DNA of 64,000 bases, from assembly GCF_044647545.1 (NCBI RefSeq), contig NZ_CP172818.1; one strand, given 5' to 3'. A program made the translations under genes and the position numbers. Below, piece after piece: positions 244 through 50,743 of this stretch. Positions within the stretch are counted from its first letter, which is position 1, and the number at the start of each line of letters is the position of its first letter. A model generated the notes under the pieces. It was not told the origin of the DNA, made no database searches, and saw only the letters and a program-made list of their open reading frames with translations. Source of the DNA: Escherichia coli (GTDB lineage Bacteria > Pseudomonadota > Gammaproteobacteria > Enterobacterales > Enterobacteriaceae).

Positions 244-313
244 CGCCTTTACTCCCTGTTAGTTGTTATTTATCCGGCCAACACACCCACGCGGCAAGCG
301 TCGCATCCGGCAT

Positions 314-6295: not shown

Positions 6296-6993
6296 AGGGA
6301 TTGCCAGTTAGCCGGCCAGGCGACATACAGGAATTTCACGCTGGATGTCGTACCAAATTCGATACTGGAGCCTTTCGGGATAAACATCACATCGCCCGCT
6401 TTGGCGATCATAGTTTCGCCTTCGTGGCGAACATGCAGCTCCCCTTCCAGCACCATGTCGATTTCGTCGTAGTTCAGGGTCCACGGAAAGAAGGCGTTCT
6501 CCCACTGCATAAAACCAGCGGCCATACTGCTGCCGTCGTCTCCGGTCACGAGATCAGTCAAGCCTACGCAGTGCGGTTCCGCGCCATCGAAACGACCAAA
6601 CTTGACGCTGCTGCCATCAATCACTTTGATGCCGCCTTTGCCGGTCACCGATTTGAAACTCGGCTGCATTGCACCCTGCTCCAGTGACTGTTTTTCCTTC
6701 ATCACTTTTTCCATCAGCTGCGCGACCAGGCTTTCGGTAAACTGGCCTTCCGGTAGCTGGGCGATGATGGTTTCGCGGATGCGCTGGCTTTCGGTTTTAT
6801 CGGCTGGCACGCTGGCGGGAACGGACGTCGTTACCGCAGTCGATTCATCACATTCGGTGATGGTAAAACCCAACAGATCAGCCACTTCACGAGCTTCCGG
6901 GGTAATAATGCTGGCGCGCAGAACCACGGACATTGCCAGTTCGCCGCGCGCGTGTGCTTCACGAATATCATTCGCTGTGATGAGTTTTTTCAC
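6292..6993 (-). CDS. eutQ: ethanolamine utilization protein EutQ (cupin)
   Basis: 233-aa ORF, operon position. Confidence 0.9.
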   Translation of the reverse strand: MKKLITANDIREAHARGELAMSVVLRASIITPEAREVADLLGFTITECDESTAVTTSVPASVPADKTESQRIRETIIAQLPEGQFTESLVAQLMEKVMKEKQSLEQGAMQPSFKSVTGKGGIKVIDGSSVKFGRFDGAEPHCVGLTDLVTGDDGSSMAAGFMQWENAFFPWTLNYDEIDMVLEGELHVRHEGETMIAKAGDVMFIPKGSSIEFGTTSSVKFLYVAWPANWQSL

Positions 6994-7447
6994 CTGCTTC
7001 CTCCTGTTTGGTGAGAGATGCCAGATAATCCACCAGTTGCTGCACGCTTTGCGGGTCGTGGCTGTTTAGCTCGAAAATCGGCTCTTCGAAGCCCGTCTCA
7101 AGCAATAACTTTCGCGTTGCGGCGACGTCAGCATCTGGCATGTCCGTTTTACTGATGACGGCGATTTGCCGTTTGCTGACGCCAATATCCAGCAACCCGG
7201 CAGGCAACCGACTTTCCGGGTCATTCGCGCCGTGGACATAGATCAGCATGTCCACATCCTGTAGCGTGGTAATTAAGGCGTGATACCAGCGGGGATGGCT
7301 AAAATATTCACCCGGCGTATCAATATCGCCCTTATCATTAAATTCCACGGCCTGTGTTTTTCTGGCGAGGGTATAATTCCCCTGCAACGCATTAAATAAC
7401 GTTGTTTTTCCTGCCCCGACGGTACCCACAAACGCAATTCGTTTCAT
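6968..7447 (-). CDS. eutP: ethanolamine utilization P-loop protein EutP
   Basis: 159-aa ORF with Walker A GTVGAGKTT; 3' end overlaps eutQ start by 26 nt. Confidence 0.9.
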   Translation of the reverse strand: MKRIAFVGTVGAGKTTLFNALQGNYTLARKTQAVEFNDKGDIDTPGEYFSHPRWYHALITTLQDVDMLIYVHGANDPESRLPAGLLDIGVSKRQIAVISKTDMPDADVAATRKLLLETGFEEPIFELNSHDPQSVQQLVDYLASLTKQEEAGEKTHHSE

Positions 7448-7459
7448 GAATGCCTCGTA

Positions 7460-7795
7460 TTAACTTTTGGTCATTTCACAAAGCGTATAATTTAATAAGC
7501 GTCCTAAACCACTGACGGTTTGTGATAACGCTTCTTCTACTGCGCCCACCGAGCCATAAATCACCAGCGCGCCGCTAAAACGGTCGAGAAAACCGATATG
7601 CACATCGGCGGCTTTCAACGCTAAATCACCGGCGATCATCGCCGTTTCTCCGGGAGTTAGCGTCATAATGCCGATTGCGCCCGCATCCGGAACGCCGATT
7701 TTCTTCGCCAGTTCCTCGCCGGGATGCGCGATGAGATGCGCCAGTGTGACCTGTTTACCGGGCACAAATTCCTGAATGATGCGTTCTTTATCCAT
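7460..7795 (-). CDS. eutS: microcompartment shell protein EutS
   Basis: Track ORF (135 aa) begins at a TTG; the ATG at 7795 gives the 111-aa protein [10 protein letters not shown]... Confidence 0.88.
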
Positions 7796-7958
7796 GAGTC
7801 GCCGCCTGTGAAAAACTTTCGTGTATCGTGACAATTTTTCGTCAGAGTAAATAACAAAATTCGGCAAGCGCGTTTAAAAGGTGAGGTAGATCACTAAGAA
7901 TGGAGAGATATTTTATGTTAAGAAAAAAAACATACATTGTATGAATATAAACGGGAAC

Positions 7959-8699
7959 CAATAAGTTTTGTTTATCATATTATATAGACTTCTTTAATTT
8001 TTAATAATTAGCAGAATACATATTTAATTACTGTTGTATTCTAAAAATATTTATCTTCACCCCATTTAAAATAATCTAGGATTTTATTCAGAAAATAAAA
8101 AAGACCCGAAAAAATCCTTCCCCCCCAAAGGCGCTAATTCATCCATATTAACTCAAGACTTCATAGAAAATTTTCTTAACCCCCATATAGAGCCTCTCTA
8201 AGCCTATTATCCTTTTATTATCAAATCTCTAACCCATCTTTACCTATCTGCAAAAACACACACAAACCACTATTTTATTTTTTTTAAAAACGGAAAAAAG
8301 CATAAGGAAACGAAACAAATGAGAAAAATTTCAAAAAAAAAGAAAAATAGAAAAAAAATAATAAAAAAAACGAAAGCGAATACGAAAGGAAGAAAAAAAA
8401 AAACAAAAAATTTCAAATTCCCCAACCCACAGCCACAAAGCAAAACGAACAAACCTGAGGAACTTAAAGAAAAAGAGTATATGAAACTTAAACTAACACC
8501 TAGCTAACTATAGTAACCGAAGAAAGAACACAAAAAAGAAACAAAAATACAAAAAAAAACTAAACAAAAAAAAAAGAAAATCATAAAATTTTTATCTCAA
8601 CATAAAAAAAAAATTGAACAAAAAAAAAATGACCCCAAAAAAAACACCCCAAAAAACAACAAAAGGAACACAACAAAACAAACAAAAAACACCCCAACA
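7959..8699. other. anomalous non-coding low-complexity block: left part AT-rich, right part (about 8281-8699) strongly A-rich/C-containing on + strand; putative foreign or artefactual insertion
   Basis: Hand tally of 8521-8700: A about 68%, C 19%, T 8%, G 4%; A-runs of 9-11 nt; only poly-Lys/poly-Phe pseudo-ORFs; eutS-maeB spacer is 978 bp here. Boundaries approximate. Confidence 0.6.
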
Positions 8700-8728
8700 C
8701 CACAGGAAGGGAGAGGAATCAGCTAAAC

Positions 8729-20278: not shown

Positions 20279-23200
20279 ATGGCGAATTTCTTTATTGATC
20301 GCCCCATTTTTGCCTGGGTGCTGGCAATCCTGTTGTGTCTGACAGGGACCCTGGCGATTTTTTCATTGCCCGTTGAACAATACCCCGATCTCGCGCCACC
20401 GAATGTGCGAGTGACCGCTAACTATCCCGGCGCATCGGCCCAGACGCTGGAAAACACCGTGACCCAGGTTATCGAGCAAAATATGACCGGCCTCGATAAT
20501 CTGATGTATATGTCATCTCAGAGCAGCGGCACCGGTCAGGCATCTGTCACGTTAAGTTTTAAAGCAGGCACCGATCCGGACGAAGCCGTGCAGCAAGTAC
20601 AAAACCAGCTACAATCAGCCATGCGAAAGTTACCGCAGGCGGTGCAAAATCAGGGCGTGACGGTGCGTAAAACCGGCGATACCAACATTCTGACCATTGC
20701 CTTCGTCTCTACCGATGGTTCGATGGATAAACAGGATATTGCCGATTACGTTGCCAGTAATATTCAGGATCCGTTAAGCCGCGTGAATGGCGTCGGGGAT
20801 ATCGATGCCTATGGTTCGCAATATTCCATGCGTATCTGGCTGGACCCGGCGAAACTCAACAGTTTCCAGATGACGGCTAAAGATGTCACTGATGCCATTG
20901 AGTCACAGAACGCGCAGATTGCGGTTGGGCAACTTGGTGGTACGCCTTCCGTCGATAAGCAGGCGCTCAACGCCACCATTAACGCCCAGTCACTGCTGCA
21001 AACACCAGAACAGTTCCGCGATATCACCTTGCGGGTGAATCAGGACGGCTCAGAGGTAAGGCTGGGCGATGTCGCCACCGTCGAAATGGGGGCGGAAAAA
21101 TACGATTATCTTAGCCGCTTCAATGGTAAGCCAGCCTCCGGGCTGGGGGTAAAACTGGCCTCCGGCGCGAACGAAATGGCGACAGCGGAGCTGGTGCTCA
21201 ATCGTCTCGACGAGCTGGCGCAGTATTTCCCGCACGGACTGGAATACAAGGTGGCGTATGAAACCACCTCGTTTGTTAAAGCCTCCATTGAAGACGTGGT
21301 GAAAACGCTGCTGGAAGCTATCGCTCTGGTTTTCCTCGTTATGTATCTGTTCCTGCAAAACTTCCGCGCCACGCTGATACCCACTATCGCCGTGCCGGTG
21401 GTGTTGATGGGAACCTTCTCCGTACTTTATGCCTTCGGTTACAGCGTCAACACCTTAACCATGTTCGCGATGGTGCTGGCGATCGGTCTGCTGGTGGATG
21501 ATGCCATCGTGGTGGTGGAAAACGTCGAACGTATTATGAGTGAGGAAGGACTCACTCCTCGCGAAGCCACACGTAAATCGATGGGGCAGATCCAGGGGGC
21601 ACTGGTCGGGATTGCGATGGTGCTTTCGGCGGTATTTGTACCAATGGCCTTCTTCGGCGGCACCACCGGTGCCATCTATCGCCAGTTCTCTATTACCATT
21701 GTTGCAGCAATGGTGCTGTCAGTACTGGTAGCGATGATCCTCACTCCGGCTCTGTGTGCCACGCTACTTAAGCCACTGAAAAAAGGTGAGCATCACGGGC
21801 AAAAAGGCTTTTTTGCCTGGTTTAACCAGATGTTTAACCGCAACGCCGAACGCTACGAAAAAGGGGTGGCGAAAATTCTCCACCGTAGCCTGCGCTGGAT
21901 TGTGATTTATGTCCTGCTGCTTGGCGGCATGGTGTTCCTGTTCCTGCGTTTGCCGACGTCGTTCTTGCCACTTGAAGACCGTGGCATGTTTACTACCTCG
22001 GTACAGTTGCCCAGCGGTTCAACCCAACAACAGACCCTGAAAGTCGTTGAGCAAATCGAGAAATACTACTTCACCCATGAAAAAGACAACATCATGTCGG
22101 TGTTTGCCACTGTTGGTTCTGGCCCTGGGGGTAACGGGCAAAACGTGGCGAGAATGTTTATCCGCCTGAAAGACTGGAGCGAACGCGACAGTAAGACCGG
22201 CACCTCGTTTGCCATTATCGAGCGTGCAACGAAGGCGTTTAACAAGATTAAAGAAGCTCGCGTTATCGCCAGCAGCCCGCCAGCAATTAGCGGTCTTGGT
22301 AGTTCTGCGGGTTTTGATATGGAGTTGCAGGACCACGCTGGAGCGGGTCACGATGCGCTGATGGCAGCACGAAACCAGTTGCTGGCGCTGGCAGCGGAAA
22401 ACCCGGAGCTAACCCGTGTGCGCCATAACGGCCTCGACGACAGTCCGCAGTTGCAGATTGATATCGACCAGCGTAAAGCTCAGGCGCTGGGCGTTGCTAT
22501 CGACGATATTAACGACACACTGCAAACCGCCTGGGGTTCGAGCTATGTGAATGACTTTATGGATCGCGGTCGCGTGAAGAAAGTCTATGTGCAGGCAGCT
22601 GCGCCGTATCGCATGCTGCCAGATGACATCAATCTCTGGTATGTCCGAAATAAAGATGGCGGCATGGTGCCCTTCTCTGCTTTCGCGACCTCACGCTGGG
22701 AGACAGGCTCGCCGCGTCTGGAACGCTATAACGGTTATTCTGCGGTAGAGATTGTAGGGGAAGCCGCACCGGGGGTCAGTACCGGTACGGCGATGGATAT
22801 TATGGAATCGTTAGTGAAGCAGTTACCAAACGGCTTTGGTCTGGAGTGGACGGCGATGTCGTATCAGGAGCGGCTTTCCGGCGCGCAGGCTCCGGCGCTG
22901 TACGCTATTTCCTTGCTGGTGGTATTCCTGTGTCTTGCGGCGTTGTATGAAAGCTGGTCGGTGCCGTTCTCGGTAATGCTGGTCGTGCCGCTGGGGGTTA
23001 TCGGCGCGCTGCTGGCAACCTGGATGCGCGGGCTGGAAAACGACGTTTACTTCCAGGTGGGCCTGTTAACGGTCATTGGTTTATCGGCGAAAAACGCCAT
23101 CCTGATCGTCGAGTTTGCTAACGAGATGAACCAAAAAGGCCACGACCTGTTTGAAGCGACGCTCCACGCCTGCCGTCAGCGTTTACGCCCGATTCTGATG

Positions 23201-25445: not shown

Positions 25446-25646
25446 ATGGACTGGCTGGCTAAATATTGGTGGATTCTGGTGATTGTCTTTTTGGTAGGCG
25501 TCCTGCTGAACGTGATTAAAGATCTCAAGCGCGTCGACCATAAGAAATTTCTCGCCAACAAGCCGGAGCTTCCCCCGCATCGTGATTTCAACGATAAGTG
25601 GGACGATGACGACGACTGGCCGAAAAAGGATCAACCGAAGAAGTAA
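25446..25646 (+). CDS. ypfN: small membrane protein YpfN
   Basis: ATG at 25446 gives 66 aa [21 protein letters not shown]... (one TM helix, acidic C-tail). Confidence 0.85.
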
Positions 25647-25653
25647 GCTAAGG

Positions 25654-25684
25654 GCCGGATAAGGCGTTAACGCCGCATCCGGCC
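25654..25684. repeat. REP (repetitive extragenic palindrome) element
   Basis: gccggataaggcgttaacgccgcatccggcc. Confidence 0.8.
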
Positions 25685-25725
25685 ATGATGCCTGATACAG
25701 TCTTATCAGACCTACCCGGCTATTA

Positions 25726-26424
25726 TTACATCATTTCAATCACATCATCATCGCCAGGCTTACCGCCGCTTAGCGCTTCGTCGAAATAATGTTTCGGAAT
25801 GGTATAACGCAAGTGATCCAGAGCAAATTGCATACTGCGATTGTCGATCGCATGGCCTAAATCCTCCACGATATCCAGCGTCACGTCACCACCGGCACTG
25901 ATTAACGCTTCCTGCGCCGCAACCGCATGCGCCAGATCGATAACCGGATCTTCACCGCCATGAATCAGGTGAATTGTCGTGGCTGTAGACGCGGTTTCCG
26001 GCAGGCTCGCATAGCGTCCGTTAAAGGCAATGACGCGTGAGGCAAGGCCCGGTTCGGCTTTAATGCTCTCCAGCGCCATAATCGCGCCTTGAGAGAAACC
26101 GATTAGCGCCGTGGCGTTAGCCCCTACTCCGCTCTGTTTCTGCCAGTAGCGCACCGTCTCAATAAACGTCGGCATGATGGCATCCACACGCGCCTGGCGA
26201 TTATCTTCCGTAATACCCTGCACCGAAAACCACTGACGCCCCGCCGGATTACCGCTCGGCTCCGCGCCTCCGACACTCACCACCAGCGCATCAGGAAATA
26301 GCGGCGCAAACCAGCTACCTATTTCCCCCATTGCCACCGGGTTATCCCCGACACCGTGGAAAAGCAGTAACAACTGTTGCGCAGGTTTATCCGGGCTTTG
26401 AACAACAAAATGGTCATGTTTCAT
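25726..26424 (-). CDS. ypfH: esterase YpfH (alpha/beta hydrolase)
   Basis: ATG at 26424 gives 232 aa; GFSQG serine-hydrolase motif. Confidence 0.9.
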   Translation of the reverse strand: MKHDHFVVQSPDKPAQQLLLLFHGVGDNPVAMGEIGSWFAPLFPDALVVSVGGAEPSGNPAGRQWFSVQGITEDNRQARVDAIMPTFIETVRYWQKQSGVGANATALIGFSQGAIMALESIKAEPGLASRVIAFNGRYASLPETASTATTIHLIHGGEDPVIDLAHAVAAQEALISAGGDVTLDIVEDLGHAIDNRSMQFALDHLRYTIPKHYFDEALSGGKPGDDDVIEMM

Positions 26425-29558: not shown

Positions 29559-30272
29559 TCAGTCCAGCTGTACACCCAAGCGGCGGGCAACGGCTTCATA
29601 GGCTTCGATCAGGCCACCGAGGCTCTGGCGGAAACGGTCTTTGTCCATTTTCTCCAGCGTTTCTTTGTCCCACAGACGGCTGCCGTCCGGGGAGAACTCA
29701 TCGCCCAGAACTACTTCGCCTTTGTACAGACCAAACTCCAGCTTGAAGTCGACCAGAATGAGACCAGCATCATCGAACAGTTTTTTCAGCACGTCGTTCG
29801 CTTTGTAGGTCAGCTCTTTCATACGCGCCAGGTTCTCTTTGCTCACCCAGCCAAAGGTTTCGCAGTAAGATTCGTTGACCATCGGATCGTGCATGGCGTC
29901 GTTTTTCAGGAACAGATCGAACAGTGGCGGGTTCAGCTCAATACCTTCTTCGATTCCAAGACGTTTCACCAGAGAGCCAGCAGCACGGTTACGCACGACA
30001 CACTCAACCGGCACCATATCCAGCTTTTTCACCAGACATTCGGTATCGGAGAGCAGACGCTCCATTTGAGTCGGGATACCCGCTTCAGCCAGTTTGCTCA
30101 TAATGAAGTAGTTGAACTTGTTGTTCACCATACCTTTGCGATCAAACTGCTCAATGCGCGCGCCATCCCCTGCTGACGTATCATTGCGGAATTCGAGCAC
30201 CAACAGGTCCGGGTTTTCCGTGCTGTATACGGTTTTCGCTTTACCACGATACAACTCAGCTTGCTTTTGCAT
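29559..30272 (-). CDS. purC: SAICAR synthetase PurC
   Basis: ATG at 30272 gives 237 aa [18 protein letters not shown]... Confidence 0.93.
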
Positions 30273-30335
30273 CTTTATCACTCCTGGGTGTGAATTAACG
30301 TTTTAAAATCTATTGCTGTCTGGTGTGCCGGATGT

Positions 30336-30374
<39 letters not shown>

Positions 30375-30425
30375 CCGACAAACAAATTTCGTGCGAATTA
30401 CCGCTAAAATCGCGTTTTTCTGCCG

Positions 30426-30441
30426 ACGCACACGTTTGCGT
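30426..30441. promoter_or_regulatory. PurR operator (pur box) upstream of purC
   Basis: acgcacacgtttgcgt versus palindromic consensus ACGCAAACGTTTGCGT (15/16). Confidence 0.6.
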
Positions 30442-30484
30442 ATCATATCAGAAAAAAGGGCCGGATGACTCCAGCCCTGTATTT

Positions 30485-33854: not shown

Positions 33855-34472
33855 ATGAACCGCTTTGTGGTGGCCGAACCACTGTGGTGTACAGGATGTA
33901 ATACCTGTCTCGCTGCCTGTTCGGACGTGCATAAAACGCAAGGTTTACAGCAACACCCGCGCCTGGCCCTGGCGAAGACGTCAACACTCACTGCCCCTGT
34001 CGTGTGTCATCACTGTGAGGAAGCCCCTTGCCTGCAGGTCTGCCCGGTCAATGCCATCTCCCAGAGGGACGATGCGATCCAACTCAACGAAAGCCTCTGT
34101 ATTGGCTGCAAGCTTTGCGCCGTGGTCTGCCCATTTGGCGCAATCAGCGCTTCAGGAAGCCGTCCGGTGAATGCCCCTGCGCAATATGTTTTTCAGGCTG
34201 AGGGCTCACTCAAAGACGGCGAAGAAAACGCGCCAACCCAACATGCTTTGCTGCGCTGGGAACCGGGTGTCCAGACCGTCGCGGTGAAATGCGACCTGTG
34301 TGATTTCTTGCCAGAAGGTCCGGCCTGCGTTCGCGCTTGTCCGAATCAGGCGTTACGGCTGATCACCGACGATAGCCTGCAACGTCAGATGAAAGAAAAA
34401 CAGCGCCTTGCCGCAAGCTGGTTTGCCAATGGCGGGGAGGATCCCCTTTCCCTCACTCAGGAGCAACGCTAA
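33855..34472 (+). CDS. hyfA: hydrogenase-4 ferredoxin-type subunit HyfA
   Basis: ATG at 33855 gives 205 aa MNRFVVAEPLWCTGCNTC...; four Cys clusters. Confidence 0.9.
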   Translation: MNRFVVAEPLWCTGCNTCLAACSDVHKTQGLQQHPRLALAKTSTLTAPVVCHHCEEAPCLQVCPVNAISQRDDAIQLNESLCIGCKLCAVVCPFGAISASGSRPVNAPAQYVFQAEGSLKDGEENAPTQHALLRWEPGVQTVAVKCDLCDFLPEGPACVRACPNQALRLITDDSLQRQMKEKQRLAASWFANGGEDPLSLTQEQR

Positions 34473-36490
34473 TGGATGCCCTGCAATTATTAACCTGGTC
34501 GCTGATCCTCTATCTGTTTGCCAGTCTGGCTTCGCTATTTTTACTCGGTCTGGACAGACTGGCTATTAAGCTTTCCGGCATCACATCGCTGGTGGGCGGC
34601 GTGATTGGCATCATCAGCGGAATTACGCAATTACATGCAGGCGTAACTTTAGCCGCCCGTTTTGCCACACCTTTTGAATTTGCCGATTTAACCCTGCGAA
34701 TGGATAGCCTCTCGGCATTTATGGTGCTGGTTATCTCCTTGCTGGTGGTGGTTTGTTCGCTCTATTCATTGACTTATATGCGCGAATACGAGGGTAAAGG
34801 CGCGGCGGCGATGGGCTTCTTTATGAATCTTTTCATCGCATCGATGGTTGCCCTGCTGGTGATGGACAACGCTTTTTGGTTCATCGTGCTGTTTGAAATG
34901 ATGTCGCTGTCTTCCTGGTTTCTGGTCATTGCCAGGCAGGATAAAACGTCGATCAACGCTGGCATGCTCTACTTTTTTATCGCCCACGCCGGATCGGTGC
35001 TGATTATGATCGCCTTCTTGCTGATGGGGCGCGAAAGCGGCAGCCTCGATTTTGCCAGTTTCCGCACGCTTTCACTTTCTCCGGGGCTGGCGTCGGCGGT
35101 GTTCCTGCTGGCCTTTTTCGGTTTTGGCGCGAAAGCCGGGATGATGCCGTTGCACAGCTGGTTGCCGCGCGCTCACCCTGCCGCACCATCGCACGCTTCG
35201 GCGTTGATGTCTGGCGTAATGGTCAAAATCGGTATTTTCGGCATCCTTAAAGTAGCGATGGATCTGCTGGCGCAAACGGATTTGCCGCTGTGGTGGGGCA
35301 TTCTGGTGATGGCGATCGGCGCAATCTCCGCGCTCCTGGGCGTGCTATATGCGCTGGCGGAACAGGATATCAAACGGCTGCTGGCCTGGAGTACCGTCGA
35401 AAACGTCGGCATTATTTTGCTGGCGGTCGGTGTGGCGATGGTCGGTCTGTCACTGCACGACCCGCTGCTCACCGTTGTTGGACTGCTCGGCGCGCTGTTT
35501 CATCTGCTCAACCATGCGCTGTTCAAAGGGCTGCTGTTTCTCGGCGCGGGCGCAATTATTTCGCGTTTGCATACCCACGACATGGAAAAAATGGGGGCAC
35601 TGGCGAAACGGATGCCGTGGACAGCCGCAGCATGCCTGATTGGTTGCCTCGCGATATCAGCCATTCCTCCGCTGAATGGTTTTATCAGCGAATGGTACAC
35701 CTGGCAGTCGCTGTTCTCACTAAGTCGTGTGGAAGCCGTAGCGCTACAACTTGCGGGTCCTATTGCTATGGTGATGCTGGCAGTCACTGGTGGGCTGGCA
35801 GTAATGTGCTTCGTCAAAATGTACGGCATTACTTTCTGTGGTGCGCCGCGCAGTACACACGCTGAAGAGGCACAGGACGTGCCAAATACGATGATCGTCG
35901 CCATGCTACTGCTCGCGGCACTCTGCGTATTCATTGCGCTTAGTGCCAGTTGGCTGGCACCGAAGATAATGCACATTGCCCATGCGTTTACCAATACCCC
36001 TCCCGTCACTGTCGCCAGCGGAATAGCACTTGTACCCGGCACGTTTCATACACGGGTCACTCCCTCATTACTGTTGCTGTTACTACTGGCGATGCCTTTG
36101 CTGCCTGGCCTTTACTGGCTGTGGTGTCGTTCGCGCCGCGCAGCGTTTCGTCGCACAGGAGATGCCTGGGCATGCGGCTACGGCTGGGATAATGCGATGG
36201 CCCCGTCAGGCAATGGCGTGATGCAGCCGCTGCGTGTGGTCTTTTGTGCGCTATTTCGTCTACGACAACAGCTCGACCCTACGCTGAGGCTGAACAAAGG
36301 TCTTGCGCACGTCACCGCCAGGGCTCAGAGCACAGAACCCTTCTGGGATGAGCGGGTGATCCGCCCCATCGTGAGCGCCACCCAACGGCTGGCCAAAGAA
36401 ATACAGCATCTGCAAAGCGGCGACTTTCGTCTCTATTGCCTGTATGTGGTCGCCGCACTGGTTGTGCTGCTAATCGCTATTGCCGTCTAA
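34472..36490 (+). CDS. hyfB: hydrogenase-4 membrane subunit HyfB (NuoL/Mrp antiporter-like)
   Basis: 672-aa polytopic membrane ORF. Confidence 0.93.
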   Translation: MDALQLLTWSLILYLFASLASLFLLGLDRLAIKLSGITSLVGGVIGIISGITQLHAGVTLAARFATPFEFADLTLRMDSLSAFMVLVISLLVVVCSLYSLTYMREYEGKGAAAMGFFMNLFIASMVALLVMDNAFWFIVLFEMMSLSSWFLVIARQDKTSINAGMLYFFIAHAGSVLIMIAFLLMGRESGSLDFASFRTLSLSPGLASAVFLLAFFGFGAKAGMMPLHSWLPRAHPAAPSHASALMSGVMVKIGIFGILKVAMDLLAQTDLPLWWGILVMAIGAISALLGVLYALAEQDIKRLLAWSTVENVGIILLAVGVAMVGLSLHDPLLTVVGLLGALFHLLNHALFKGLLFLGAGAIISRLHTHDMEKMGALAKRMPWTAAACLIGCLAISAIPPLNGFISEWYTWQSLFSLSRVEAVALQLAGPIAMVMLAVTGGLAVMCFVKMYGITFCGAPRSTHAEEAQDVPNTMIVAMLLLAALCVFIALSASWLAPKIMHIAHAFTNTPPVTVASGIALVPGTFHTRVTPSLLLLLLLAMPLLPGLYWLWCRSRRAAFRRTGDAWACGYGWDNAMAPSGNGVMQPLRVVFCALFRLRQQLDPTLRLNKGLAHVTARAQSTEPFWDERVIRPIVSATQRLAKEIQHLQSGDFRLYCLYVVAALVVLLIAIAV

Positions 36491-36500
36491 GGAAATCACC

Positions 36501-37448
36501 ATGAGACAAACTCTTTGCGACGGATATCTGATCATTTTTGCGTTAGCACAGGCCGTGATTCTGCTGGCGCTAACCCCGCTTTTTACGGGGATTTCCCGGC
36601 AGATACGCGCGCGTATGCACTCCCGTCGCGGACCGGGGATCTGGCAGGATTATCGCGATATCCACAAACTGTTTAAACGCCAGGAAGTTGCGCCGACATC
36701 TTCAGGTCTGATGTTCCGCCTGATGCCGTGGGTATTAATCAGCAGCATGCTGGTGCTGGCGATGGCCCTACCACTATTTATTACTGTTTCCCCTTTTGCG
36801 GGCGGCGGCGATCTGATCACCCTTATCTATCTTCTTGCCCTATTTCGTTTTTTCTTTGCTCTTTCCGGGCTGGATACCGGAAGCCCCTTTGCGGGAATCG
36901 GTGCCAGTCGCGAGTTAACGCTCGGCATTCTGGTCGAACCCATGCTCATTCTCTCACTGCTGGTATTGGCGCTGATAGCGGATTCCACGCATATCGAGAT
37001 GATCAGCAAGACGCTGGCGACGGGCTGGAACTCGCCGCTAACCACCGTACTGGCGTTACTGGCCTGTGGTTTTGCCTGCTTCATTGAGATGGGAAAAATT
37101 CCCTTTGATGTTGCTGAAGCAGAACAGGAATTACAGGAAGGCCCGCTGACCGAATATTCCGGTGCCGGGCTGGCGCTGGCGAAGTTGGGGCTGGGGCTGA
37201 AACAGGTCGTGATGGCATCACTGTTTGTGGCCCTGTTTCTGCCCTTTGGGCGCGCGCAAGAGCTTTCTCTCACCTGCCTGCTGACTTCACTTGTCGTTAC
37301 GCTGCTCAAGGTTTTGCTGATTTTTGTTCTGGCCTCTATCGCAGAAAACACGCTGGCACGCGGGCGATTTTTACTCATTCACCATGTGACCTGGCTTGGC
37401 TTCAGCCTTGCTGCGCTTGCCTGGGTCTTCTGGTTAACCGGTCTGTAA
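36501..37448 (+). CDS. hyfC: hydrogenase-4 membrane subunit HyfC (NuoH-like)
   Basis: ATG at 36501 gives 315 aa MRQTLCDGYLIIF... Confidence 0.9.
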   Translation: MRQTLCDGYLIIFALAQAVILLALTPLFTGISRQIRARMHSRRGPGIWQDYRDIHKLFKRQEVAPTSSGLMFRLMPWVLISSMLVLAMALPLFITVSPFAGGGDLITLIYLLALFRFFFALSGLDTGSPFAGIGASRELTLGILVEPMLILSLLVLALIADSTHIEMISKTLATGWNSPLTTVLALLACGFACFIEMGKIPFDVAEAEQELQEGPLTEYSGAGLALAKLGLGLKQVVMASLFVALFLPFGRAQELSLTCLLTSLVVTLLKVLLIFVLASIAENTLARGRFLLIHHVTWLGFSLAALAWVFWLTGL

Positions 37449-37464
37449 GGAGCACTAACGGAAT

Positions 37465-38904
37465 ATGGAAAATCTTGCTCTGACGACGTTATTGCTGCCT
37501 TTTATCGGCGCACTGGTCGTTTCGTTTTCGCCACAACGTCGGGCCGCCGAATGGGGGGTTTTGTTCGCCGCGCTGACCACGCTGTGCATGTTGTCACTGA
37601 TCTCCGCGTTTTATCAGGCCGATAAAGTTGCCGTCACGTTGACGTTGGTCAACGTGGGGGATGTGGCGTTGTTTGGCCTGGTCATTGATCGCGTGAGTAC
37701 GCTGATTCTGTTTGTGGTGGTGTTCCTCGGTTTGCTGGTCACGATCTACTCCACGGGTTATCTGACGGATAAAAATCGCGAACACCTGCATAACGGCACG
37801 AATCGTTATTACGCATTTTTGCTGGTTTTTATCGGCGCGATGGCGGGACTGGTACTCTCCTCGACGCTGCTCGGTCAGTTGTTGTTTTTTGAAATTACGG
37901 GCGGCTGCTCCTGGGCGTTGATCAGTTATTACCAGAGCGATAAAGCGCAGCGTTCAGCACTAAAAGCGTTACTTATCACTCATATCGGTTCGCTGGGGTT
38001 GTATCTTGCCGCCGCCACGCTGTTTTTGCAGACCGGAACGTTTGCGCTTAGCGCGATGAGCGAGTTACACGGCGACGCACGTTATCTGGTTTATGGCGGC
38101 ATCCTGTTTGCCGCGTGGGGGAAATCGGCCCAGCTACCGATGCAAGCGTGGCTACCGGATGCAATGGAAGCGCCAACACCGATCAGCGCCTATCTCCACG
38201 CCGCATCGATGGTGAAAGTGGGCGTTTACATTTTTGCCCGTGCCATTATCGACGGCGGCAATATCCCGCATGTGATTGGCGGCGTTGGCATGGTTATGGC
38301 ACTGGTCACCATTCTTTACGGCTTCCTGATGTATTTGCCACAGCAGGATATGAAGCGGTTGCTGGCCTGGTCGACCATCACTCAACTTGGCTGGATGTTT
38401 TTCGGCTTGTCGCTCTCCATCTTCGGCTCGCGGCTGGCGCTGGAGGGCAGCATCGCCTACATCGTCAACCACGCGTTCGCTAAAAGCCTATTTTTCCTTG
38501 TAGCAGGTGCGCTGAGTTACAGCTGCGGCACGCGCTTGTTGCCGCGTCTGCGTGGCGTATTGCACACCCTGCCGTTGCCAGGCGTGGGTTTCTGCGTAGC
38601 CGCGCTGGCGATTACTGGCGTACCGCCGTTCAACGGCTTCTTCAGTAAATTCCCGCTGTTTGCCGCCGGTTTTTCGTTGTCAGTGGAGTACTGGATCCTG
38701 CTGCCCGCCATGATTCTGCTGATGTTTGAATCGGTCGCCAGTTTCGCCTGGTTTATTCGCTGGTTTGGTCGCGTCGTGCCTGGCAAACCGAGCGAGGCCG
38801 TCGCCGATGCCGCACCGCTGCCAGGATCAATGCGCCTGGTGTTGATTGTACTGATTGTGATGTCGCTGATTTCCAGCGTAATCGCCGCGACCTGGTTGCA
38901 GTAA
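37465..38904 (+). CDS. hyfD: hydrogenase-4 membrane subunit HyfD (antiporter-like)
   Basis: 479-aa polytopic membrane ORF. Confidence 0.93.
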   Translation: MENLALTTLLLPFIGALVVSFSPQRRAAEWGVLFAALTTLCMLSLISAFYQADKVAVTLTLVNVGDVALFGLVIDRVSTLILFVVVFLGLLVTIYSTGYLTDKNREHLHNGTNRYYAFLLVFIGAMAGLVLSSTLLGQLLFFEITGGCSWALISYYQSDKAQRSALKALLITHIGSLGLYLAAATLFLQTGTFALSAMSELHGDARYLVYGGILFAAWGKSAQLPMQAWLPDAMEAPTPISAYLHAASMVKVGVYIFARAIIDGGNIPHVIGGVGMVMALVTILYGFLMYLPQQDMKRLLAWSTITQLGWMFFGLSLSIFGSRLALEGSIAYIVNHAFAKSLFFLVAGALSYSCGTRLLPRLRGVLHTLPLPGVGFCVAALAITGVPPFNGFFSKFPLFAAGFSLSVEYWILLPAMILLMFESVASFAWFIRWFGRVVPGKPSEAVADAAPLPGSMRLVLIVLIVMSLISSVIAATWLQ

Positions 38905-38915
38905 GGAGATGATGA

Positions 38916-39566
38916 ATGACCGGTTCTATGATCGTAAATAATCTGGCGGGACTGATGATGCTGACATCGCTGTTTGTGATTAGCGTCAAAAGCTATCGCC
39001 TGTCATGCGGATTTTACGCCTGCCAGTCGCTGGTGCTGGTGTCTATTTTCGCCACCCTCTCGTGCCTGTTCGTCGCAGAGCAACTGCTGATCTGGTCCGC
39101 CAGCGCCTTTATCACCAAAGTGCTGCTGGTACCGTTAATCATGATTTACGCTGCACGAAATATTCCCCAGAACATCCCGGAAAAAGCGTTATTCGGTCCG
39201 GCTATGATGGCATTGCTCGCGGCATTAATTGTCCTGCTTTGCGCATTTGTCGTTCAGCCCGTGAAGCTACCGATGGCTACCGGGCTGAAACCGGCGCTGG
39301 CGGTGGCGTTAGGTCATTTTCTGCTTGGCCTGCTGTGCATTGTCAGCCAGCGCAATATCCTGCGGCAAATTTTTGGTTACTGCCTGATGGAAAACGGCTC
39401 CCATCTGGTGCTGGCGCTTCTTGCCTGGCGTGCACCGGAACTGGTGGAAATTGGTATCGCTACCGACGCCATCTTCGCCGTCATTGTGATGGTGTTACTG
39501 GCAAGAAAAATATGGCGTACCCACGGCACGCTGGACGTGAACAACTTGACCGCGCTGAAGGGATAA
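38916..39566 (+). CDS. hyfE: hydrogenase-4 membrane subunit HyfE
   Basis: 216-aa membrane ORF. Confidence 0.92.
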
Positions 39567-39570
39567 TGAG

Positions 39571-41151
39571 ATGAGTTATTCTGTGATGTTCGCTTTACTC
39601 CTGCTCACGCCGCTGCTTTTTTCGCTGCTCTGTTTTGCCTGCCGGAAATGGGGACACTCTGCGACTCGCACGGTGACAGTACTACATAGCTTAGGGATCA
39701 CACTGCTGCTGATTCTGACACTGTGGGTGGTCCAAACTGCCGCTGATGCGGGAGAAATATTCGCTGCGGGACTGTGGCTTCATATTGATGGTCTGGGCGG
39801 TTTGTTCCTCGCCATTCTTGGTGTGATTGGCTTTCTCACCGGTGTTTACTCGATTGGCTACATGCGTCATGAAGTGGCACACGGCGAGCTTTCACCCGTT
39901 ACGCTGTGCGATTACTACGGTTTCTTCCATCTGTTTTTGTTCACCATGCTGCTGGTTGTTACCAGCAATAACCTGATTGTGATGTGGGCGGCGATCGAAG
40001 CCACCACCTTAAGCTCGGCGTTTCTGGTAGGCATTTACGGTCAGCGTTCATCGCTGGAAGCTGCATGGAAGTACATCATTATTTGTACTGTTGGTGTCGC
40101 TTTTGGTCTGTTCGGTACCGTGCTGGTATACGCCAACGCCGCCAGCGTTATGCCGCAGGCAGAAATGGCGATATTCTGGAGCGAGGTTCTTAAGCAATCG
40201 TCCTTGCTTGACCCAACATTAATGCTGTTGGCCTTTGTGTTTGTGCTAATTGGCTTTGGCACCAAAACCGGGCTATTCCCCATGCACGCCTGGCTGCCAG
40301 ATGCTCACAGTGAAGCGCCGAGTCCGGTCAGCGCCCTGCTCTCCGCCGTATTGCTGAACTGCGCGCTATTGGTGCTGATTCGCTATTACATCATTATTTG
40401 CCAGGCCATCGGCAGCGATTTCCCCAACCGGTTGTTGCTCATCTTCGGCATGTTGTCGGTTGCCGTGGCGGCATTTTTCATTCTGGTACAGCGGGACATT
40501 AAGCGTCTGCTGGCGTACTCCAGCGTGGAGAACATGGGACTGGTCGCGGTGGCGTTAGGCATTGGCGGGCCGCTGGGAATTTTTGCCGCGCTGCTGCACA
40601 CCTTAAACCACAGTCTGGCAAAAACGCTGCTGTTCTGCGGTTCCGGCAATGTACTGCTCAAGTACGGCACGCGCGATCTCAACGTCGTCTGCGGAATGCT
40701 CAAAATCATGCCATTTACCGCCGTGCTGTTTGGCGGCGGTGCGCTGGCGCTGGCCGGGATGCCGCCCTTCAACATTTTTCTTAGCGAATTTATGACCGTT
40801 ACCGCCGGACTGGCGCGTAATCACCTGCTGATTATCGTCCTGCTGTTATTGCTGTTAACGCTGGTGCTGGCGGGCCTGGTACGGATGGCTGCGCGGGTGT
40901 TAATGGCGAAACCGCCGCAGGCCGTTAACCGGGGTGAACTTGGCTGGTTGACCACCTCGCCAATGGTGATTCTGCTGGTCATGATGCTGGCGATGGGAAC
41001 GCATATTCCACAACCTGTCATCAGGATCCTGGCGGGCGCTTCCACTATAGTCCTCTCAGGGACGCACGACCTGCCTGCACAACGTAGCACCTGGCATGAT
41101 TTTTTGCCTTCAGGCACCGCATCTGTTTCGGAGAAACACAGTGAACGTTAA
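39571..41151 (+). CDS. hyfF: hydrogenase-4 membrane subunit HyfF (antiporter-like)
   Basis: 526-aa polytopic membrane ORF. Confidence 0.93.
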
Positions 41152-42856
41152 TTCATCGTCAAATCGTGGCGAAGCGATTCTCGCCGCCCTGAAAACGCAG
41201 TTCCCCGGCGCGGTGCTGGATGAAGAGCGACAAACGCCTGAACAGGTCACCATTACGGTGAAAATCAATCTGCTGCCTGACGTTGTGCATTATCTTTATT
41301 ATCAACATGATGGCTGGCTTCCGGTCCTGTTTGGCAACGACGAGCGGACACTTAACGGTCATTACGCGGTTTATTATGCCCTTTCTATGGAAGGGGCCGA
41401 AAAATGCTGGATCGTGGTGAAGGCACTGGTCGATGCCGACAGTCGGGAGTTTCCGTCAGTCACACCGCGCGTCCCTGCCGCGGTCTGGGGCGAGCGAGAA
41501 ATTCGCGATATGTACGGGTTGATTCCGGTTGGCCAGCCGGATCAGCGTCGGCTGGTGTTGCCCGATGACTGGCCGGAAGATATGCATCCGCTGCGCAAAG
41601 ACGCGATGGATTATCGACTGCGCCCAGAACCGACGACTGATACCGAAACGTATCCGTTTATCAACGAGGGCAACAGCGATGCGCGGGTGATCCCTGTCGG
41701 CCCGCTGCATATCACCTCCGATGAACCAGGTCACTTCCGCTTGTTTGTGGATGGCGAGCAAATTGTCGATGCTGATTACCGCCTGTTTTATGTCCATCGC
41801 GGCATGGAGAAACTGGCAGAAACGCGGATGGGCTACAACGAAGTGACCTTCTTATCCGACCGCGTGTGTGGGATTTGCGGTTTTGCCCACAGTGTGGCCT
41901 ATACCAACTCGGTTGAAAATGCACTGGGGATTGAGGTGCCGCAACGAGCGCATACTATTCGCTCGATTCTGCTGGAAGTCGAACGGCTGCATAGTCATTT
42001 GCTCAACCTTGGCCTCTCCTGCCATTTTGTTGGTTTTGATACCGGCTTTATGCAATTTTTCCGCGTGCGGGAAAAGTCGATGACGATGGCGGAATTGCTG
42101 ACCGGGTCGCGTAAAACCTACGGTCTGAATCTGATTGGTGGTGTTCGCCGCGATATTCTCAAAGAGCAACGTCTGCAAACGCTGAAACTGGTGCGCGAGA
42201 TGCGCGCCGACGTGTCGGAGCTGGTAGAGATGTTGCTTGCCACGCCGAATATGGAACAACGCACTCAGGGCATTGGCATTCTCGACCGACAAATCGCCCG
42301 TGATTATAGCCCCGTAGGGCCGCTGATCCGCGGCAGTGGCTTTGCCCGTGATTTGCGCTTTGATCACCCCTACGCCGACTACGGCAATATTCCCAAAACG
42401 CTGTTTACCTTTACCGGCGGCGATGTCTTCTCCCGCGTGATGGTCCGTGTCAAAGAGACGTTTGATTCGCTGGCAATGCTGGAATTTGCCCTCGACAACA
42501 TGCCAGATACCCCACTGCTGACCGAAGGCTTTAGCTATAAACCTCACGCATTCGCGCTGGGCTTTGTTGAAGCGCCACGTGGTGAAGACGTGCACTGGAG
42601 CATGCTCGGTGATAACCAAAAATTGTTCCGCTGGCGCTGTCGTGCCGCCACCTACGCCAACTGGCCAGTGCTGCGTTACATGCTGCGCGGCAATACCGTT
42701 TCTGACGCACCGCTGATTATCGGTAGCCTTGATCCCTGTTACTCCTGTACCGACCGTGTGACGCTGGTTGATGTGCGCAAGCGCCAGTCAAAAACCGTGC
42801 CGTATAAAGAGATCGAACGCTACGGCATTGATCGTAACCGTTCGCCGCTGAAGTAA
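41141..42856 (+). CDS. hyfG: hydrogenase-4 [NiFe] large subunit HyfG
   Basis: N-terminal [11 protein letters not shown] and C-terminal DPCYSCTDR Ni-Fe ligand motifs; start placed at GTG 41141 ([13 protein letters not shown]...), exact start uncertain. Confidence 0.85.
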
Positions 42857-42865
42857 GGACAGAAA

Positions 42866-43411
42866 ATGCTGAAGTTACTGAAAACTATTATGCGCGCCGG
42901 AACCGCGACGGTGAAATATCCCTTCGCGCCACTGGAGGTCAGCCCAGGCTTTCGCGGGAAACCGGACCTGATGCCCAGCCAATGTATTGCCTGCGGTGCC
43001 TGCGCCTGTGCTTGTCCGGCAAATGCGCTGACTATCCAGACCGACGACCAACAAAATACGCGCACCTGGCAGCTCTATCTGGGGCGTTGTATTTACTGCG
43101 GACGTTGTGAAGAAGTGTGCCCGACCAGAGCCATTCAGCTTACCAATAACTTTGAACTGACCGTCACCAATAAAGCCGATCTCTATACCCGCGCGACGTT
43201 TCATCTACAACGTTGCAGTCGTTGCGAACGCCCATTTGCCCCGCAAAAAACCGTCGCACTGGCTGCAGAACTGTTGGCACAGCAACAAAATGCGCCACAA
43301 AACCGCGAAATGTTGTGGGCGCAAGCGAGCATCTGCCCGGAATGCAAACAACGCGCGACGCTGATCAACGACGATACAGATGTACCGCTGGTGGCTAAGG
43401 AGCAGCTATGA
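42866..43411 (+). CDS. hyfH: hydrogenase-4 2x[4Fe-4S] ferredoxin subunit HyfH
   Basis: 181-aa ORF with [12 protein letters not shown] and [12 protein letters not shown]. Confidence 0.93.
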
Positions 43412-44166
43412 GTCCAGTGCTTACGCAACATGTCAGCCAGCCCATAACGCTGGACGAGCAAACGCAAAAGATGAAGCAGCATTTGCTACAGGATATCCGT
43501 CGCTCGGCTTACGTTTATCGCGTCGATTGCGGCGGCTGCAACGCCTGCGAAATCGAAATTTTTGCCGCCATCACACCCGTATTCGACGCAGAACGTTTTG
43601 GCATTAAGGTTGTTTCATCACCGCGTCACGCCGATATTTTGTTATTTACTGGCGCAGTCACCCGGGCGATGCGTATGCCTGCACTTCGGGCATATGAGTC
43701 TGCCCCCGATCATAAAATCTGTGTTTCCTACGGCGCGTGCGGTGTCGGCGGCGGTATTTTCCACGATCTTTACAGCGTCTGGGGCGGCAGCGACACCATT
43801 GTCCCCATTGATGTTTGGATCCCCGGCTGCCCGCCAACACCGGCCGCCACCATTCACGGTTTCGCCGTGGCGCTCGGTTTGCTGCAACAGAAGATTCACG
43901 CGGTGGATTATCGCGATCCCACCGGGGTGACCATGCAACCGCTGTGGCCGCAGATCCCGCCATCACAGCGTATCGCCATTGAGCGAGAAGCGAGGCGGCT
44001 GGCGGGCTATCGTCAAGGGCGAGAAATTTGCGATCGGCTCCTGCGCCATTTAAGCGACGATCCTACAGGAAATCGGGTTAACACCTGGTTGCGCGAAGCT
44101 GACGATCCACGTCTCAATAGTATCGTTCAGCAACTCTTTCGCGTTCTCCGGGGGTTACATGGCTGA
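43408..44166 (+). CDS. hyfI: hydrogenase-4 small subunit HyfI (NuoB-like)
   Basis: 252-aa [13 protein letters not shown] and GCPP motifs; 4-nt overlap with hyfH. Confidence 0.93.
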
Positions 44167-44572
44167 GGAGTGCAGGGAAATTGTTTTCTGGACGCTGCGA
44201 AAAAAATTTATCGCCAGTAGCGACGAGATGCCGGAACACAGCTCCCAGGTAATGTATTACTCGTTGGCTATCGGTCATCACGTTGGCGTGATTGATTGTT
44301 TGAATGTCGCCTTCCGCTGCCCACAGACGGAATACGAAGATTGGCTTGCACAGGTCGAAGAGGAGCAAGCCCGACGTAAGATGCTGGGGGTGATGACTTT
44401 TGGTGAGATTGTTATTGACGCCAGCCACACCGCCCTGTTGACCCGGGCATTCGCGCCACTGGCAGATGACGCGACGTCGGCGTGGCAGGCGCGTAGCATT
44501 CAATTCATTCATCTGTTGGATGAAATTGTGCAGGAACCGGTCATCTATCTGATGGCCAGAAAAATTGCGTGA
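44159..44572 (+). CDS. hyfJ: hydrogenase-4 accessory protein HyfJ (HycH-like)
   Basis: 137-aa ORF, 8-nt overlap with hyfI. Confidence 0.9.
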
Positions 44573-44601
44573 GAAGGATTTCTCATTAATAAGGACTGTT
44601 G

Positions 44602-46614
44602 ATGGCTATGTCAGACGAGGCGATGTTTGCCCCGCCGCAAGGAATAACAATTGAAGCGGTAAACGGAATGCTCGCGGAGCGGTTAGCACAGAAACACGGC
44701 AAGGCGTCTTTATTACGCGCCTTCATCCCGCTGCCGCCGCCGTTCAGCCCGGTACAACTTATTGAACTGCATGTTCTCAAAAGCAACTTCTATTACCGCT
44801 ACCATGATGATGGCAGCGATGTGACGGCAACAACAGAGTATCAGGGTGAGATGGTCGATTATTCGCGCCACGCCGTCCTTCTCGGCAGTAGTGGAATGGC
44901 GGAGCTACGCTTTATTCGCACCCACGGCAGTCGTTTTACTCCCCAGGATTGCACACTGTTTAACTGGCTGGCACACATAATCACTCCGGTTCTGCAATCA
45001 TGGCTCAATGATGAAGAACAGCAGGTGGCGCTGCGTTTGCTGGAGAAAGATCGCGATCATCATCGGGTACTGGTGGATATCACTAATGCAGTGTTGTCAC
45101 ATCTTGATCTCGACGATCTGATCGCTGACGTCGCTCGTGAGATCCATCATTTTTTCGGTCTGGCTTCAGTCAGTATGGTACTGGGCGATCATCGAAAGAA
45201 CGAGAAGTTCAGCCTGTGGTGCAGCGATCTTTCTGCCTCACATTGTGCGTGTCTGCCACGCTGTATGCCTGGCGAAAGTGTATTGCTGACACAAACGCTA
45301 CAAACCCGACAACCGACCTTGACGCACTGTGCAGACGATCTGTTTCTCTGGCAACGCGACCCGTTATTACACTTACTTGCATCTAACGGCTGCGAATCTG
45401 CGCTCCTTATACCGCTCACCTTTGGCAACCATACACCGGGTGCATTGTTGCTGGCGCATACCTCTTCCACTCTCTTTAGTGAGGAAAACTGCCAGCTACT
45501 ACAACATATTGCCGATCGCATCGCTATTGCCGTTGGCAATGCCGATGCCTGGCGCAGCATGACCGATTTGCAGGAAAGCTTGCAGCAAGAAAACCACCAG
45601 CTTAGCGAGCAGCTCCTTTCGAATCTGGGCGTCGGTGACATTATCTATCAAAGCCAGGCAATGGAAGACCTGCTCCAGCAGGTAGATATTGTGGCGAAGA
45701 GCGACAGTACGGTGTTGATTTGTGGTGAAACCGGAACCGGCAAAGAGGTGATCGCCAGAGCGATCCATCAACTTAGCCCACGACGCGACAAGCCACTGGT
45801 CAAAATCAACTGCGCTGCCATCCCCGCCAGTCTTCTGGAAAGTGAGTTATTCGGTCATGACAAAGGGGCATTTACTGGTGCGATTAATACCCATCGTGGT
45901 CGTTTTGAAATTGCCGATGGCGGCACGTTGTTTCTCGATGAAATTGGCGATCTGCCGTTAGAACTTCAGCCTAAACTGCTGCGCGTATTGCAGGAACGGG
46001 AGATTGAGCGTCTCGGCGGGAGTAGAACGATCCCGGTAAATGTCAGAGTCATTGCCGCCACCAACCGTGATTTGTGGCAAATGGTTGAAGATCGCCAGTT
46101 TCGCAGCGATCTCTTTTATCGCCTGAATGTCTTCCCACTGGAACTGCCGCCACTGCGCGACCGTCCGGAAGATATCCCTCTTTTAGCAAAGCATTTCACG
46201 CAAAAAATGGCGCGCCATATGAATCGCGCAATTGACGCCATCCCGACCGAGGCGCTACGCCAGTTGATGTCGTGGGACTGGCCGGGCAACGTGCGCGAGC
46301 TGGAAAACGTGATTGAGCGAGCGGTACTACTGACTCGCGGTAACAGTCTGAATTTACATCTTAATGTCCGACAAAGCCGTTTACTGCCGACGCTAAATGA
46401 AGATTCAGCGCTTCGCAGTTCAATGGCGCAGTTACTGCACCCGACGACGCCAGAGAATGACGAAGAAGAACGTCAGCGCATTGTTCAGGTATTGCGAGAA
46501 ACCAATGGCATTGTTGCCGGGCCCCGTGGCGCGGCGACACGATTAGGGATGAAGCGCACCACGCTGCTGTCACGAATGCAGCGTCTGGGGATCTCGGTTC
46601 GCGAGGTGTTGTAA
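44602..46614 (+). CDS. hyfR: sigma54-dependent transcriptional activator HyfR (FhlA-like)
   Basis: 670 aa from ATG 44602; AAA+ sigma54-activator domain ([14 protein letters not shown]) and C-terminal HTH. Confidence 0.93.
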
Positions 46615-46635
46615 TCTGTTTTTGCAGGAGTATGC

Positions 46636-47484: not shown

Positions 47485-47516
47485 AAATCAGCCCGGCGAA
47501 ACAGTTCGTCGGGCTG
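47484..47516. terminator. bidirectional stem-loop terminator between focB and perM
   Basis: agcccggcg ...loop... cgtcgggct (9-bp stem, one G-T); T5 follows on the minus strand. Confidence 0.5.
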
Positions 47517-50638: not shown

Positions 50639-50668
50639 GAAGTGCTCCATCGCTAGTTGAAGCACATT

Positions 50669-50702
50669 GCCGGATGCGACGCTTGCCGCGTCTTATCCGG
50701 CC
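50669..50702. repeat. REP element
   Basis: gccggatgcgacgcttgccgcgtcttatccggcc. Confidence 0.8.
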
Positions 50703-50743
50703 GACGAATACTATGGGTGCATATCCGACAATAAACGTCTTGT

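Follow-up and report, generated by a model that had tools for sequence, protein, structure and literature searches.

Three REP elements in a 64-kb stretch of Escherichia coli chromosome, mostly the remains of paired elements

The three palindromes that lie after ypfN, upstream of purC and after yfgD in the 64,000-nucleotide stretch of DNA analysed here (the window) are genuine Escherichia coli REPs, of type Y at the first two places and Z2-like at the third. Most of the REP sites in this strain are worn-down remains of larger paired elements; the purC copy alone of the three is structurally complete, and its spacer is fixed in the species. Taken as a whole, the data are in all likelihood best explained by genuine REPs that are mostly fossils in this strain and are now passive at the RNA level. 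REPs are among the longest-known repeats of bacteria, and the REP biology encountered here is already known, and the K-12 reference has REPs at these loci too. What our analysis adds is that REP singletons are shown, locus by locus, as decayed doublets in a lineage that appears to lack rayT.

The sequence of the window is that of an E. coli chromosome and shares 99.9-100% identity with ST648-like strains. The 701-nt stretch around the ypfN site matched 5,425 of the 5,426 complete E. coli genomes, with a best identity of 99.9% in ST648-like strains, and positions 8718-49999 are 99.99% identical to strain ST648 by BLAST, which also revealed a 1,420-nt offset relative to the ST648 reference before 8718. 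The initial annotation had taken the REPs as support for a native origin of most of the window; this fits, yet the direct BLAST identity to E. coli is far stronger evidence, and the annotation value of three real REP matches is that they mark native Escherichia chromosome. According to the K-12 and ST648 annotations, dapE-ypfN converges on ypfH and bepA-yfgD on hda, and purC, bamC and dapA all lie on the minus strand; no repeat_region features are listed for the K-12 stretch consulted in RefSeq.

Identity of the three palindromes

Read directly, each of the three sequences lies within 1 to 3 nt of where it had first been placed. An inverted-repeat search indicated that all of them are imperfect palindromes: 25653-25668/25669-25684 after ypfN (site 1; 16-nt arms, 88% complementary), 30339-30352/30355-30368 between bamC and purC (site 2; 14-nt arms, 86% complementary) and 50669-50682/50688-50701 after yfgD (site 3; 14-nt arms, 86% complementary). 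A consensus with a fixed loop found one site and a fixed Z2 pattern none, because of loop-length variation and lost heads, and we therefore adopted a variable-gap REP core pattern, GATAAGNCG-N{3,9}-CGNCGCATC in GTAG orientation, with which both strands of the 64 kb were scanned. It gave three matches, at 25658-25679 (+), 30343-30364 (-) and 50673-50697 (-), and none in 100 dinucleotide-preserving shuffles. The search with the REP consensus pattern that the initial annotation had proposed as a check thus returned exactly three sites, and none of the three failed to match. The published Y consensus (Nunvar 2010, PMC2817692, Table 1) was found at 30338-30372 with 1 mismatch, 0 such matches being expected, and pairwise alignment with the published consensi gave identities of 29/35 for site 1 (Y), 33/35 for site 2 (Y) and 32/37 for site 3 (Z2). 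An nhmmer profile made solely from 19 distinct REPs of other genomes detected the same places, with E values of 1.2e-12 at 30373-30337 (-), 5.2e-11 at 25653-25683 (+) and 1.6e-9 at 50705-50667 (-), followed by two REP remnants with E values of about 1e-3 and 1e-2. Pattern, consensus, profile and gene annotation all bore out the three gene contexts to which the REPs had originally been assigned.

The defining features of REPs are a 5' GTAG, an AA-GC bulge and a length of 29-37 nt (Corneloup 2021, PMC8266576). The AA/GC bulge is present at all three sites (GATAAG...CGCATC) and appears in the folds as a 2x2 internal loop; the 5' GTAG head is found at site 2 (GTAGGTCGGATAAG) and is missing from site 1 (TAAGGGCCGGATAAG) and site 3 (GTCGGCCGGATAAG). 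Since the orthologous copies in other strains carry GTAG, sites 1 and 3 are mutated members of the family and not non-members, and the label canonical, applied to all three at first, holds for their palindromes and bulges and, as regards an intact head, for the purC site only. With a length of 35-38 nt, a G+C-rich imperfect palindrome and the AA/GC bulge, these sequences resemble the known E. coli REPs, or palindromic units, of types Y and Z2, which were reportedly described by Stern in 1984 and by Gilson and Bachellier. They are likewise extragenic, between the convergent pairs ypfN/ypfH and yfgD/hda and in the tandem bamC-purC arrangement, and multi-copy, as the REP parts of our queries matched the median E. 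coli genome at 3, 3 and 9 places in a megablast search that needs an exact 28-nt word. Unlike the known elements, sites 1 and 3 have lost the GTAG head, the former by deletion and the latter by a change of GTAG to GTCG.

We give practically no credence to the idea that these palindromes fall outside the REP family and are G+C-rich inverted repeats arisen by chance or intrinsic terminators of the ordinary kind. Their position at the ends of genes is one expected of terminators, and their folds are stable: as RNA, stretches of 66-86 nt around the REPs have energies of -29 to -38 kcal/mol, with z-scores of -2.6 to -5.3. However, the idea was refuted by the consensus match, by the shuffles, which gave 0 matches to the REP core or consensus, and by the profile search (E from 1e-12 to 2e-9). 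In addition, no T-run directly follows the G+C-rich hairpin at any site, the two convergent spacers hold no terminator, and every E. coli genome contains these 31-38-nt sequences at other places as well. A search of the window with Rfam at its gathering thresholds returned no match, which is uninformative either way; we know of no Rfam family for REP.

Erosion of the paired elements and rayT

Two inverted REPs with a linker reportedly constitute the BIME of Gilson 1991 and the REPIN of Bertels and Rainey 2011. Doublets of the Y/Z2 type occur at ypfN-ypfH, yfgD-hda and eutH-eutG in other E. coli strains or Escherichia species, and at the ypfN and yfgD loci two complete inverted REPs with a short linker are found in K-12, in B1 strains and elsewhere in Escherichia. 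In the window, by contrast, all doublets are broken, the partner being truncated or nearly gone or the unit collapsed, and the loci are therefore former BIMEs and not BIMEs. The tktB-hda interval holds 3 intact cores in the window, 1 of them with GTAG, compared with 4 and 3 in UTI89, 5 and 4 in O55:H7 and 6 and 5 in B1. The count of three in the initial annotation is right for near-complete palindromes and leaves out the truncated partners at 25689-25715 and 50719-50730, the stubs at 30326-30334 and 14324-14332 and a collapsed BIME at 269-312.

After ypfN, the Y-type unit (REP 1a, 25653..25684, + strand) starts 6 nt past the stop codon (25644-25646) and has kept its AA/GC bulge, with TAAGG in place of GTAGG; in alignments with K-12, with B1 strains and with other species of Escherichia, 11-12 bp (GCTCAACCGTA) prove to be deleted here. 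Alignment, fold and profile (E 9e-3) identified next to it an internally truncated Z2-type partner, or iREP, of the ancestral BIME (REP 1b, 25689..25715, - strand), which keeps GTAGG..TGATAAGAC and ..ATCAGGCA, has lost its central ~17 nt and forms a short residual hairpin a few nt after the ypfH stop codon (25726-25728). Its orthologue is full-length in K-12, B1 strains, E. albertii, E. whittamii and Escherichia spp. The full doublet of K-12 and the B1 strains consists of a GTAG-headed Y REP, an 11-nt linker and a Z2 REP, and an outgroup scan of species-representative genomes, with a DNA pattern anchored on the YpfN C-terminus, recovered it in E. albertii, E. whittamii and two further Escherichia species. 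The short haplotype, common to the window, ST648, UTI89 (B2) and O55:H7, lacks the 11-12 bp, among them the GTAG that heads the first REP, together with about 17 nt in the middle of the second, and is derived, since the full doublet is present in K-12, B1 strains and other Escherichia species. It was found in 2,520 of the 5,426 genomes (46%, against about 54% with the long form). The window additionally has a private 1-nt deletion (T) at 25652/25653, adjoining REP 1a (AAGT|GGCC to AAGGGCC), that none of the 5,426 genomes shares, the best identity being 99.1% over 109 nt.

In Kluyvera and Citrobacter the ypfN-ypfH spacer contains REPs of other types, which indicates that the REP sequence type is genus-specific and that this spacer was colonised independently by different REP families. 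The REPs of these other genera form BIME-like doublets of genus-specific types, such as GTAGGCCTGATAAGCGCAACGCCATCAGGCA in Kluyvera; in Citrobacter amalonaticus we observed a plain hairpin instead.

After yfgD, an arsC-like gene, the Z2-like unit (REP 3a, 50668..50705, - strand), supported by inverted repeat, core pattern, consensus and profile, lies 30 nt past the stop codon (50636-50638). Its bulge is intact and its head reads GTCG (base 50703), where K-12 and the B1, B2 and E strains have CTAC/GTAG. Two inverted REPs are located here in A, B1, B2 and E strains; in the allele of the window about 31 nt of the second REP were deleted, and alignment identified a 12-nt remnant of it (GCATATCCGACA; REP 3b, 50719..50730, + strand). 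The one-REP allele was found in 804 of the 5,426 genomes.

Two further spacers showed the same kind of wear. Profile search (E 1e-3) and strain comparison detected a collapsed BIME at 269..312, with no strand assigned, in the eutH-eutG spacer (244-313), composed of an iREP tail (269-282) and, at 289-312, the 24-nt 3' part of a Z2-like REP, which reaches to within 1 nt of the eutG stop codon (314-316). The BIME is organised in 100-bp tandem units, of which the closest strain has 1, E. coli B 3 and strain ES1 5. The remnant in the window is non-palindromic, and its allele appears to be private, since it is 46 nt shorter than that of the nearest relative and the top match leaves its middle unaligned (2 pieces, 98% covered). 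In the strains that have this BIME, a REP hairpin begins about 2 nt after the eutG stop codon. The tktB-ypfG spacer (14316-14417 in the window) contains a full REP in E, B1 and B2 strains; in the window, strain comparison left a REP arm stub (GCCGGATGC, 14324..14332, + strand), the REP having been replaced by another palindromic dispersed repeat, CCCTCACCCTAACCCTCTCCCCAGAGGGGCGAGGGGAC (about 14328-14397, palindromic core 14354-14376). A genome search showed this repeat to be multi-copy, with a median of 16 places per genome, and the window allele occurs in 830 of the 5,426 genomes. The repeat is probably BoxC. BoxC is among the repeat families listed in PMC2267715. All five REP-bearing spacers vary between strains and their flanking genes are at least 99% identical, so that the REP spacers are hotspots of intergenic polymorphism in the window.

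REPs are non-autonomous relics of REP/BIME (REPIN) elements, and their spread is the work of the HuH tyrosine transposase RayT (TnpA-REP), which binds the folded single strand and requires the 5' GTAG as well as the AA/GC bulge. At ypfN and yfgD the copies, both without GTAG, are singletons left after deletions destroyed their inverted partners. Since the E. coli TnpA-REP enzyme tolerates no mutation of GTAG (PMC8266576), these two copies are predicted not to serve the transposase as substrates. With the K-12 rayT gene as query, we detected rayT in 3,575 of the 5,426 complete E. coli genomes. A further DNA-level search used a chimeric query, in which a lineage-diagnostic segment of the window was joined to rayT. 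The 30 nearest relatives by megablast and the 12 nearest by blastn matched it at one place each, with no rayT match, and the median genome at two, and on this ground the lineage of the window appears to be without rayT.

These data bear on whether the elements are currently active mobile REPINs or BIMEs, still excised and copied by RayT in this strain, which we regard as extremely unlikely. The head and bulge of the purC copy are intact and CT dinucleotides lie nearby, and the eutH-eutG array, ranging from 1 to 5 units between strains, points to dynamic loci. However, two of the three REPs lack the head that the enzyme does not do without (PMC8266576), both doublets are broken, rayT was undetected in the nearest relatives by DNA search, and E. 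coli shares the sites as orthologues with other Escherichia species, which implies that the sites are old and vertically inherited; the copy number of the array could also change by replication slippage or recombination without RayT. Mostly fossil REPs are in line with the published view of REP singlets as decaying REPINs (PMC8049555), which the eroded loci and the absence of rayT fit, and the case offers an anecdotal illustration of the REPIN-RAYT decay model. The short ypfN haplotype is also present in a strain of the rayT-positive O55:H7 serotype, so that erosion at ypfN did not require the loss of rayT. Searching the literature for losses of rayT in particular E. coli phylogroups yielded no report.

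The broken doublets also argue against a main role at the DNA level, in which the elements would serve chromosome organisation as binding sites of DNA gyrase, IHF or Pol I, a proposal made for BIMEs. The literature cited in PMC2817692 and PMC8266576 documents that BIMEs are bound in this way, and doublets of the Y/Z2 type were the ancestral state at ypfN and yfgD. In the window, however, those doublets are destroyed and single REPs are left, and no role of REPs in compaction or long-range contacts was found in a recent study (bioRxiv 10.64898/2026.03.23.713779). The degraded ypfN allele is carried by about half of the E. coli genomes and the degraded yfgD allele by 15%, and alleles as common as these argue against a strongly selected DNA-level function of the doublets. 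We therefore consider this role very unlikely, and fossil REPs passive at the RNA level remain our preferred reading.

The purC leader copy

The second REP (30338..30372, - strand), a complete Y-type unit with GTAG head and AA/GC bulge, is located about 65 nt upstream of the start codon (30272-30270) of purC (29559-30272, - strand), and bamC extends from 30485 (- strand). A terminator scan placed the intrinsic terminator of bamC, a 9-bp stem followed by TTTTTT, at 30457..30478 (- strand), upstream of the REP. Directly upstream of the PurR box of purC (30426..30441, - strand; ACGCACACGTTTGCGT on the + strand) lies an extended -10-like motif, TGATATGAT (30450-30442, - strand). The PurR operator is identical to the site defined by ChIP-chip (PMC3159470, Table 1). 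A promoter scan upstream of purC found no -35/-10 pair, and from its extended -10 character we infer that TGATATGAT is a purC promoter element. The order on the minus strand is thus the bamC stop codon, the terminator (30478-30457), TGATATGAT, the PurR box (30441-30426), the REP (30372-30338), the Shine-Dalgarno sequence and the ATG at 30272. Being downstream of both the bamC terminator and the ChIP-verified PurR box, the REP most probably lies in the 5' leader of purC and not in a 3' spacer, the transcript start being read from the -10-like motif and the operator position. The original description of the three elements as lying in 3' intergenic spacers therefore stands for the two convergent pairs and probably fails for the copy between purC and bamC.

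A perfect 9-nt inverted repeat (30336-30344/30374-30382; TTTGTCGGA / TCCGACAAA) brackets the REP. A partial REP arm (TGCCGGATG, 30326..30334, + strand) pairs with 30374-30382, and together with a duplicated TCCGAC it extends the REP hairpin to a nested composite stem-loop of ~57 nt, with an MFE of -30 kcal/mol and a z-score of -5.2. A similar layout of a partial arm and a full REP was also observed at the tktB-ypfG REP of other strains.

The bamC-purC spacer has its full length in 5,425 of the 5,426 E. coli genomes, with identities of 90-100%. All six E. coli genomes compared contain the REP, as does E. albertii. In Citrobacter sp. R56 the same operator and Shine-Dalgarno sequence occur without the ~105-nt segment that holds the REP, which indicates an Escherichia-specific insertion. 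We asked whether this copy is a selected regulatory element of the purC leader, acting on mRNA stability or translation, and not a neutral insertion. The conservation of its spacer and its presence in E. albertii, the larger nested hairpin in which it is embedded and its position between the PurR operator and the Shine-Dalgarno sequence speak for such a role. However, Citrobacter sp. R56 has promoter/operator and Shine-Dalgarno sequence without the insert, so that purC regulation does not need the REP, and conservation in one species and its sister species is also expected from neutral vertical inheritance. Selection on this copy is, in our estimate, rather unlikely; as a mostly passive REP it would have no evident role. 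To our knowledge, no role has been attributed to a REP in a 5' leader position.

RNA-level role and other features of the region

Our functional statements on these REPs are drawn from published REP biology. REPs are said to act as 3'-UTR stabilisers or terminators, as reported in Newbury 1987 and in a 2026 preprint by Harris et al. The hairpins of the convergent spacers resemble those systems, as the terminator scan found no terminator-like site in the ypfN-ypfH and yfgD-hda spacers and the REP hairpin is the sole strong structure in both; the purC copy, unlike them, sits in a 5' leader. Because these spacers lack an intrinsic terminator, the REP hairpin is probably a 3'-end barrier, a stabiliser or a partial terminator, and would define or protect transcript 3' ends and limit convergent read-through. 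This is consistent with the description of REPs as terminator/stabiliser elements in 3' UTRs, as for REP325, and with the correlation of REPs between convergent genes with higher expression, in a study that also reports context-dependent effects and no general half-life difference (bioRxiv 10.64898/2026.03.23.713779).

REPs within 15 nt of a stop codon are reported to stall terminating ribosomes and lower translation (Liang, Rudd and Deutscher 2015, as summarised in PMC12306157). The yfgD REP, at 30 nt from the stop codon, is outside that range. In the window the hairpin begins 6 nt past the ypfN stop codon; the other strains of the short haplotype have a gap of 7 nt and K-12 one of 18 nt, so that the ypfN copy would resemble the stop-codon-proximal attenuators, inside the range of up to 15 nt, and its K-12 counterpart would not. 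By this rule the two common E. coli ypfN haplotypes may differ in YpfN output. A more specific proposal, that in a rayT-less lineage with decaying REPs the 11-12-bp deletion switched the small membrane protein YpfN to the REP-attenuated class, seems to us distinctly improbable; if true, the short (46%) and long (about 54%) haplotypes would differ in regulation without a coding or promoter change.

The initial annotation had contrasted the REPs with a foreign-looking block at about 8000-8700, and this block is real, though a matter separate from the REPs. Positions 7998-8717 (~720 nt) in the eutS-maeB spacer consist of low-complexity, poly-A-rich sequence with 28-32% G+C, 51% A and an AT skew of up to +0.64. 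The block is present in 0 of the 5,426 complete E. coli genomes, where its matching flanks jointly span about 515 bp, compared with 1,201 in the window. An odd insertion and an assembly artefact are the two possible origins of the block. Strain ST648 has two glycosyltransferase-family genes at the insertion point of the block (6580-8717 of the compared NZ_CP008697.1 locus) and most strains just a short eutS-maeB spacer, which shows that this spacer is a variable insertion site. The three differences private to the window, namely the deletion at 25652/25653, the eutH-eutG collapse and the A-rich block, all lie in or next to repeats and may point to assembly errors.

Larger differences between strains were also observed in the region. 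A vapBC toxin-antitoxin pair is inserted between ypfJ and purC in the B1 strain O104:H4 and in the platypus isolate A2 (16219-16844 of each compared locus), and this insertion is absent from the window, K-12, UTI89 and O55:H7. UTI89 (B2) lacks the whole hyfABCDEFGHIJR-focB block (about 33856-47485 in the window), and its bcp directly adjoins yfgO (21043-21141 of the compared UTI89 locus).
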